Assembly (NCBI RefSeq): GCF_056746865.1
Contig: NZ_CM163382.1
Direction: 5' to 3' (one strand)
DNA: 64,000 nt
The first letter of the stretch is position 1. Every line of letters starts with the position of its first letter. The position numbers were made by a program, and so were the translations under genes. This document shows, one piece after another, positions 30,118 to 30,747 of the stretch. Under the pieces are notes generated by a model. That model ran no database searches, was not told the DNA's origin, and saw only the letters and a list, made by a program, of their open reading frames with translations.

Positions 30118-30519
30118 TACTTTCCAAACCTGTAATTTTTACAGGTACATTCAGTTTCTTTAGTAAATCGGAAGTAAATAAGATACGTAGCACATATCAA
30201 TATAGGTTAAACGAGATTAAGTTTTAATTATTTTCGATTGGGCTTAAATTTATGTTTTTTTCCTGATGAGTGTCAATATGTGAACAGAAAAGGAATTCCA
30301 TGGTTAAGTCAATATTTACAAAAAATGAAAATATTGCTTTTTTGATAAGAAGAAAAAGACATTCAGTTTCATAAGGTTATTGGCAATATAACGTTCAATT
30401 CTTACTTGCATTTTATATTAGCCAGGAACTTTGCCCTGAGGTGTTAGGAATAGTCTTAATGTGTTGTGTAATGGACTAGTAAAAAAACAAGTTTAAATGA
30501 TAAGAAATAGAATATAAAA

Positions 30520-30747
30520 CTATAATGAGTCATAATTAAAGATGATTTGCCAATCAGTAAAGTGTTTTAATGGATTAACATGCCGCACAAAATGGTTATG
30601 GGTGTTCATTCCAATAAGTGATGAAAAATTAAACAGGTGTAAGTACGTCATCTGTCCGGTAAGCCCCCTAAGAGCCAAATTAAGTGAAGTTAAACGAAGA
30701 CTGCCAGTTGTCACAGGAACGATGGCCTCTTTGCCAGGGCACTGCAT
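30520..30747 (-). CDS. hypothetical 75 aa protein (position and length match ykgL of K-12 from memory)
   Basis: ORF only; no strong RBS or domain signal. Confidence 0.3.
   Translation of the reverse strand: MQCPGKEAIVPVTTGSLRLTSLNLALRGLTGQMTYLHLFNFSSLIGMNTHNHFVRHVNPLKHFTDWQIIFNYDSL

Follow-up and report, generated by a model that had tools for sequence, protein, structure and literature searches.

The window analysed here, a 64-kb stretch of DNA, is a segment of the E. coli chromosome that carries the ecp (mat) common-pilus operon on its minus strand. The pilus genes ecpC, ecpB and ecpA were assigned from open reading frames and the RefSeq annotation of orthologous loci, and the product of ecpR (matA), the gene that heads the operon, matches the Pfam family GerE (E 9e-11). 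Upstream of ecpR lies an AT-rich region whose candidate regulatory elements are collected in Table 1 together with the neighbouring genes and reading frames. The region is present in 5083 of 5426 E. coli genomes, with ecpR, ykgL, ykgO and ykgM annotated around it, and gene content past ykgR varies among strains. In E. coli FDAARGOS_1288, which is otherwise 100% identical over 2.1 kb, an IS1 element (locus 3322-4019) splits ecpR; this disruption is a natural knockout of the pilus activator.

Table 1 Genes, reading frames and candidate regulatory features around the ecpR upstream region (window coordinates)
Feature	Coordinates	Strand	Basis or remark
ecpC	25588-28119	-	ORFs and RefSeq annotation of orthologous loci
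ecpB	28139-28807	-	ORFs and RefSeq annotation of orthologous loci
ecpA	28865-29452	-	ORFs and RefSeq annotation of orthologous loci
ecpR (matA), 180 aa, LuxR/FixJ-type HTH regulator, first gene of the operon	29527-30069	-	ATG 30069
16-codon GTG extension (older 196-aa ecpR annotation)	30070-30117	-	Most likely 5' leader
AT-rich, predicted-curved region, very likely cis-regulatory for the ecpRABCDE (mat) operon	30070-30600	-	Core 30118-30560
Shine-Dalgarno-like GAGG ahead of ATG 30069	30081-30084	-	Alignment columns G617, G619 and G620 invariant in nine loci
Predicted -10 hexamer TAAATT	30247-30252	-	Consensus scan; TAAATT kept in 8/9 loci
A7 homopolymer in the -35/-10 spacer	30255-30261	-	7, 8 or 9 among E. 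coli genomes
Predicted -35 hexamer TTGACA	30271-30276	-	Consensus scan; TTGAC invariant in 9/9 loci
Weak candidate IHF site AATGAAAATATTG	30324-30336	+	1 mismatch; the block's only IHF-consensus-like site
Conserved block CCAATAACCTTATGAAACTGAATG between boxes and promoter	30360-30383	-	Invariant alignment columns T322-A338
TTCCT-N17-TTCCT, putative EcpR boxes	30424-30450	-	Sole match in 64 kb vs 0.06 expected
14-bp RcsB-type palindrome TAAGACTATTCCTA, contains the distal TTCCT	30445-30458	-	Conserved in 9/9 loci
75-aa ORF	30520-30747	-	Spurious
96-aa ORF	30542-30832	+	Overlaps the 75-aa ORF
Conserved motif TTTTGTGCGG, distal margin of the AT-rich block	30583-30592	-	Alignment
ykgL, next annotated gene, frameshifted pseudogene in the window strain	30894-31119	+	RefSeq 'frameshifted' in identical strains

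For comparison across genera, a single tblastn scan of EcpR against species-representative genomes recovered eight loci, which make nine with the window: one divergent Escherichia locus (87%), one locus in each of five Klebsiella species (K. grimontii, K. oxytoca, K. michiganensis, K. indica and K. spallanzanii), one in a Pantoea species, and a K. oxytoca paralogue. These loci bear directly on where ecpR begins. PGAP annotates a 180-aa protein, while the MG1655 record still carries the 196-aa form that starts at GTG 30117. In Klebsiella, Pantoea and the K. oxytoca paralogue, a stop codon closes the frame a few codons upstream of the methionine matching ATG 30069. Because the orthologue frames are closed upstream, the GAGG ahead of the ATG is invariant and PGAP uses the 180-aa form, the start of ecpR is probably ATG 30069 and not GTG 30117. 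The left border of the AT-rich block at 30118 rests on the GTG start, and this border therefore lacks orthologue support.

The block at 30118-30560 (443 bp) has a G+C content of 27.8% (A+T 72.2%), compared with 49.7% across the 64-kb window. Only 0.03% of the 443-bp windows scanned over the 64 kb are as GC-poor, and the 443-bp stretch with the lowest G+C (30136-30578, 27.3%) falls on the same block. Measured over 100 bp, G+C does not exceed 0.34 between ~30100 and ~30600 and climbs to 0.50-0.57 across 30650-30800. Tracts of four or more A/T bases occur at 27 per kb in the block versus 10.8 per kb in the window, a 2.5-fold difference. Predicted DNA shape was obtained with a wedge model, using Bolshoy/Trifonov parameters. 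In this model, the mean predicted curvature of 30118-30560 ranks in the top 0.5% among 443-bp windows, the strongest predicted bend spans the 150 bp of 30100-30250 (end-to-end ratio in the lowest 0.1%), and a second, weaker bend is predicted at 30400-30600. The earlier note had described a strongly AT-rich block of about 440 bp at this position and had proposed checking its composition and curvature. The description holds on composition (72% A+T vs 50%, the GC-poorest 443-bp stretch in 64 kb, and thus clearly above average in A+T), and the block is also predicted to be curved, with its mean in the top 0.5% and 30100-30250 among the most bent 0.1%.

The high-affinity H-NS motif TCGATAAATT has no match with two or fewer mismatches inside 30118-30560; this motif is dispensable for H-NS binding of AT-rich DNA. 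The H-NS target probably includes the regulator gene ecpR itself. The G+C content of ecpR is 0.40, and 400-bp windows over the downstream genes ecpA-C range from 0.53 to 0.58. The predicted ecpR leader also contains a perfect 7-bp hairpin, ACCTGTA-aaaat-TACAGGT (30128-30146, minus strand), which coincides with the strongest predicted bend; its stem is kept in E. coli, and is not found in the divergent Escherichia locus or in Klebsiella.

A consensus scan of the block picked out TTGACA-N18-TAAATT (30276-30247, minus strand), a putative sigma-70 promoter close to consensus. Its hexamers predict a transcription start at ~30238-30240, or 121-123 bp ahead of GTG 30117. PMC10038029, citing Martinez-Santos 2012, gives 121 bp as the distance from the ecpR start codon up to the ecp promoter and describes the activation of this promoter by EcpR with IHF. 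Since the predicted start at ~30238 fits this published distance, we equate the predicted promoter with the ecp promoter. A second promoter-like site, TTAAAA-N17-TATATT (30227-30199), fits the same 121 bp if the distance is counted from ATG 30069; it was rejected as the main promoter, having no conservation outside E. coli, Klebsiella included. Overall, three promoter-like sites were found against 4.8 expected from shuffles, so there is no enrichment beyond composition, and the same scan returned no terminator-like sites.

EcpR reportedly binds two TTCCT boxes located at a distance upstream of the ecp promoter (Martinez-Santos 2012). The TTCCT-N17-TTCCT pair of the window, positioned 186-212 bp upstream of the predicted start, is what we take to be these published boxes. 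The palindrome TAAGACTATTCCTA that overlaps the pair differs by one mismatch from the RcsAB consensus and is the best match to it in the window. It also fits exactly the RcsB box pattern TN(G/A)GAN4TC(T/C)NA given in PMC7913699. This degenerate pattern is not rarer than chance in the window (three found vs 2.7 expected), and the weight of the RcsB-type box therefore rests on its conservation. With the RcsAB-box 14-mer and up to two mismatches allowed, the window holds six matches versus 0.36 expected from shuffles; those at 7979, 21456, 35641 and 49199 each have two mismatches, and the match at 35641 lies inside the coding sequence of a LysR regulator.

For IHF, the exact consensus WATCAANNNNTTR was not found in the block, and the weak candidate AATGAAAATATTG is not conserved in Klebsiella. 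The sequence at 30360-30383, between the boxes and the promoter, is present in all nine loci (given also as CCAATAACCnTATGAAA, minus strand) and matches the IHF consensus with two mismatches, which makes it a candidate site for IHF or another protein. At the distal edge of the block, TTTTGTGCGG is shared by both Escherichia loci and by four of five Klebsiella species; the exceptions are K. indica, Pantoea and the K. oxytoca paralogue, where the sequence differs. We infer where the published start site, boxes and IHF site fall on window coordinates, and likewise the exact start site and the base pairs that each protein would contact.

The architecture is shared beyond E. coli. Roughly 500 bp upstream of ecpR are AT-rich in all nine loci; in the related loci, G+C over 100 bp falls to 0.12-0.31 against locus averages of 0.46-0.58, and ecpR itself has a G+C content of 0.37-0.43, Klebsiella and Pantoea included. 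Each of the nine loci has a palindromic TAAGA(A/C)TA(G/T)TC(T/C)TA box, placed 361-480 bp upstream of the point where the EcpR tblastn match begins. Within the nine-locus alignment, where mean column identity is 62%, the invariant columns comprise the 14-bp box, the TCCT of the proximal box, the block at 30360-30383, the TTGAC of the -35 hexamer, part of the -10 hexamer, the ribosome-binding site and the start codon. The promoter spacer measures 17 bp in Klebsiella versus 18 bp in the window strain. An exact TTCCT-N17-TTCCT occurs only in E. coli and the K. oxytoca paralogue; the other loci have TTCTT...ATCCT. The cross-genus element is the 14-bp RcsB-type palindrome with an invariant TCCT 17 bp downstream, and not the TTCCT repeat. 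Its conservation across genera suggests an ancestral site for an EcpR-RcsB heterodimer. K. oxytoca NBRC 105695 has two ecpR-like genes ~7.5 kb apart on one contig, whose products share 80% and 58% identity with E. coli EcpR. Both genes are preceded by an AT-rich block and an RcsB-type box of their own, an arrangement suggestive of tandem paralogous ecp-like clusters in this strain.

Published work on K-12 places H-NS at the counterpart of this block. Table 1 of PMC3661553 lists a 398-bp K-12 promoter island between ecpR(-) and ykgL(+) that is H-NS-bound 'according to all studies', the ChIP data compared there being those of Grainger, Kahramanoglou and Oshima. Regulation has been described as well: the mat operon is activated by heterodimers of MatA(EcpR) with RcsB, and this activation does not depend on RcsB phosphorylation (PMC5651002, PMC7917084). 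According to PMC5651002, which cites Martinez-Santos 2012 and Lehti 2013, H-NS represses matA/EcpR, and low temperature, acid pH or acetate induces it. In K. pneumoniae, an hns mutant shows derepression of ecpA and pilus regulatory genes, with ecpR in the primer list (PMC4746245). The earlier note had expected a nucleoid-protein-bound pilus control region under temperature or phase control and had pointed to H-NS ChIP data as a comparison. Binding by H-NS agrees with that expectation, all published K-12 data sets compared being positive at the counterpart (PMC3661553), as does temperature control, given the low-temperature induction of MatA/EcpR (PMC5651002). The strain used for H-NS ChIP was K-12, whose intergenic sequence is only ~93% identical to that of the window strain. 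On window coordinates the K-12 island presumably corresponds to 30086-30483, after a ~776-bp shift between K-12 genome versions, and would extend from ~30 bp inside the old ecpR annotation to ~366 bp upstream.

Intergenic identity to the window is bimodal among E. coli genomes, at ~98-100% in ~2200 genomes and ~93% in ~2800, K-12 among the latter. This agrees with Lehti 2013, in which mat expression reportedly depends on a promoter polymorphism linked to phylogroup. The two promoter haplotypes also differ in the A tract of the -35/-10 spacer, which was counted from exact matches. The K-12-type haplotype (3013 records) has A7 in 1688 records (56%, the largest group), A8 in 941, including MG1655, C600, J53 and ATCC 8739, and A9 in 13, while the window-type haplotype (2168 records) has A7 in 2146 (99%) and A8 in 14. 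Tracts of seven, eight and nine bases correspond in E. coli to spacers of 18, 19 and 20 bp, respectively. A single DH5alpha assembly departs from the A8 of other K-12 strains in having A7, which may be real or an assembly error. Since tract length is mostly structured by lineage, the variation resembles a stable polymorphism of the promoter more than a fast switch.

Several other readings of the block were weighed. Phase control, the other alternative in the earlier note, is not borne out, and a phase switch of any of three kinds, through an invertible promoter segment, Dam/Lrp methylation or slipped-strand changes of the A tract within a clone, is very unlikely. Three observations speak for such a switch: the promoter and boxes lie within 318 bp flanked by a 16-nt inverted-repeat pair that is 81% complementary; the spacer A tract has seven, eight or nine bases among genomes; and a 2025 preprint reports that ecpR expression varies from replicate to replicate in K-12. 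However, the inverted repeats found, this pair included, are all imperfect and AT-rich, no conserved flanking repeat is present, and no recombinase gene occurs among the annotated neighbours. Moreover, collinear alignments cover 80% or more of the 774-bp intergenic query in 4975 of 5064 E. coli records, with no inversion or break in 25 records sampled across the ranking. A fimS-like invertible element was rejected on these grounds, and a pap-like Dam/Lrp methylation switch was rejected because no GATC lies inside the block; 30040-30808 has none, and the single site at 30809 leaves no pap-like pair. As for slippage, no tandem repeats were found, 7-9 bases is a short tract for rapid slippage, and tract length tracks lineage, A7 being nearly universal in the window type and A8 common to K-12, ATCC 8739 and other small-genome strains. 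Positive autoregulation by itself can produce heterogeneous expression.

On the upstream side, the earlier note had the block separate ecpR from a 75-aa ORF at 30520-30747 that it considered poorly supported. The gap is real and the doubt about the ORF was well placed, but the ORF is not a gene, and the next annotated gene is ykgL. The true ecpR-ykgL intergenic gap spans ~775-820 bp and is AT-rich only in its ecpR-proximal 500 bp. In the window strain ykgL has two 1-bp deletions relative to K-12; in K-12-type strains it is intact (75 aa), has no Pfam family, and matches the length of the 75-aa ORF by coincidence. From the block to ykgL runs a stretch of normal G+C (30600-30890) that is single-copy in E. 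coli genomes, is not a repeat element, and contains crossing 10-11-nt inverted repeats without a conserved ORF or Rfam match. That the block or its distal edge is a real small gene (the 75-aa or the 96-aa ORF) or a small RNA is extremely unlikely, even though both ORFs are open in the window strain and its close relatives, and 30650-30800 combines normal G+C (50-57%) with inverted repeats. Neither ORF has a Pfam match, and RefSeq annotates nothing beneath the 774-bp intergenic query in 25 genomes drawn from across the range of identities. In K-12-type strains the 75-aa ORF is reduced to 32 codons by a 1-bp deletion or has lost its start codon, and in one further strain it has 39 codons; across K-12-type and other strains the two ORFs are shortened to 19-48 aa or start-less, and both are absent from the 87%-identity Escherichia locus. 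We therefore rejected both as genes. Against a small RNA, folding of 30640-30840 gave z-scores of 0.06 and -0.81, no better than shuffles, and an Rfam scan of 29000-33000 returned no matches at E<=1. We give almost no credence to the reading of the block as AT-rich DNA left over from horizontal transfer, or as a gene-island junction, with no function or regulatory role of its own. Promoter islands have been linked to horizontally acquired genes, the ecpR/ykgL island is flagged as foreign-gene-associated by IslandViewer and two foreign-gene predictors (PMC3661553), and the differing gene content past ykgR would also fit. Yet short motifs are invariant over three genera in an alignment that otherwise averages 62% column identity, and published genetics (PMC10038029, PMC5651002) places the operon promoter and activator sites in this region.

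On the composition, promoter and box motifs and cross-genus conservation observed here, with the curvature and the promoter predicted, and with H-NS occupancy and repression, the need for IHF, the EcpR-RcsB partnership and the temperature response taken from the literature, we consider it very likely that this block regulates the ecpRABCDE (mat) fimbrial operon in cis, with silencing by H-NS and activation by EcpR-RcsB with IHF. In such a scheme, the sigma-70 promoter at 30276-30247 (minus strand) would start transcription near 30238 and give a ~170-nt leader to ATG 30069. H-NS would coat the AT-rich curved DNA around and downstream of the promoter, into the AT-rich ecpR, and so silence the operon. 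The EcpR/MatA-RcsB heterodimer would bind ~190-220 bp upstream of the start, at 30424-30450, with the distal box lying in the palindrome, and together with IHF it would counter H-NS. With ecpR at the head of the operon, this activation would be a positive autoregulation, a feedback that could take low temperature, acid pH and acetate as its inputs.

The ecp/mat control region has reportedly been studied in EHEC/EPEC and in the meningitis strain IHE 3034 (Martinez-Santos 2012, J Bacteriol 194:5020; Lehti 2012, J Bacteriol 194:3475; Lehti 2013, Mol Microbiol 87:1200; Pannen 2016). The region in EHEC/EPEC and IHE 3034 is the same locus, with the same gene order, promoter distance, TTCCT boxes and RcsB-type box, and O157:H7 is 98.2-98.4% identical over it. 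Nothing substantive separates the window from this known region: it is a strain variant, 100% identical to UPEC 118UI, with a promoter lineage ~7% diverged from K-12. The K-12 promoter island 310529_398 (Panyukov and Ozoline 2013, PMC3661553) occupies the same position, is likewise AT-rich and is H-NS-bound in all ChIP studies compared; unlike the promoter-island picture, the window block has no excess of promoter-like sites (3 vs 4.8), and one conserved promoter stands out. Use of a FixJ/LuxR-type partner with RcsB against H-NS silencing is shared with bgl and leuO (BglJ-RcsB) and with gadA (GadE-RcsB) (PMC3950696, PMC5651002). The ecp system differs from these in that the target operon itself codes for the auxiliary regulator, in its first gene, the boxes lie ~200 bp upstream of the promoter and IHF is reportedly needed. 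The fimS and pap regions are likewise AT-rich fimbrial control regions bound by H-NS and IHF, but the ecp block has no invertible element, dedicated recombinase or paired GATC/Lrp sites.

The block is thus already known, having been studied directly since 2012, and its confirmation adds no new biology. The additions are modest: a cross-genus footprint of constrained bases, support for a shorter ecpR start, rejection of the 75-aa ORF, which should stay unannotated, and a census of the spacer A tract. Of these, the footprint and A-tract points may go beyond published work. Taken jointly, the proposals that the EcpR-RcsB heterodimer site is the ancestral activator site and that the spacer A tract acts as a lineage-level tuner or slow contingency switch are tentative and, as a pair, rather doubtful; if true, some of the phylogroup-linked differences that have been reported could stem from the spacer A tract. 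As a factor in colonisation and biofilm formation, the common pilus is widespread, and its control region is a textbook-like example of an activator that regulates its own expression and relieves silencing by H-NS.
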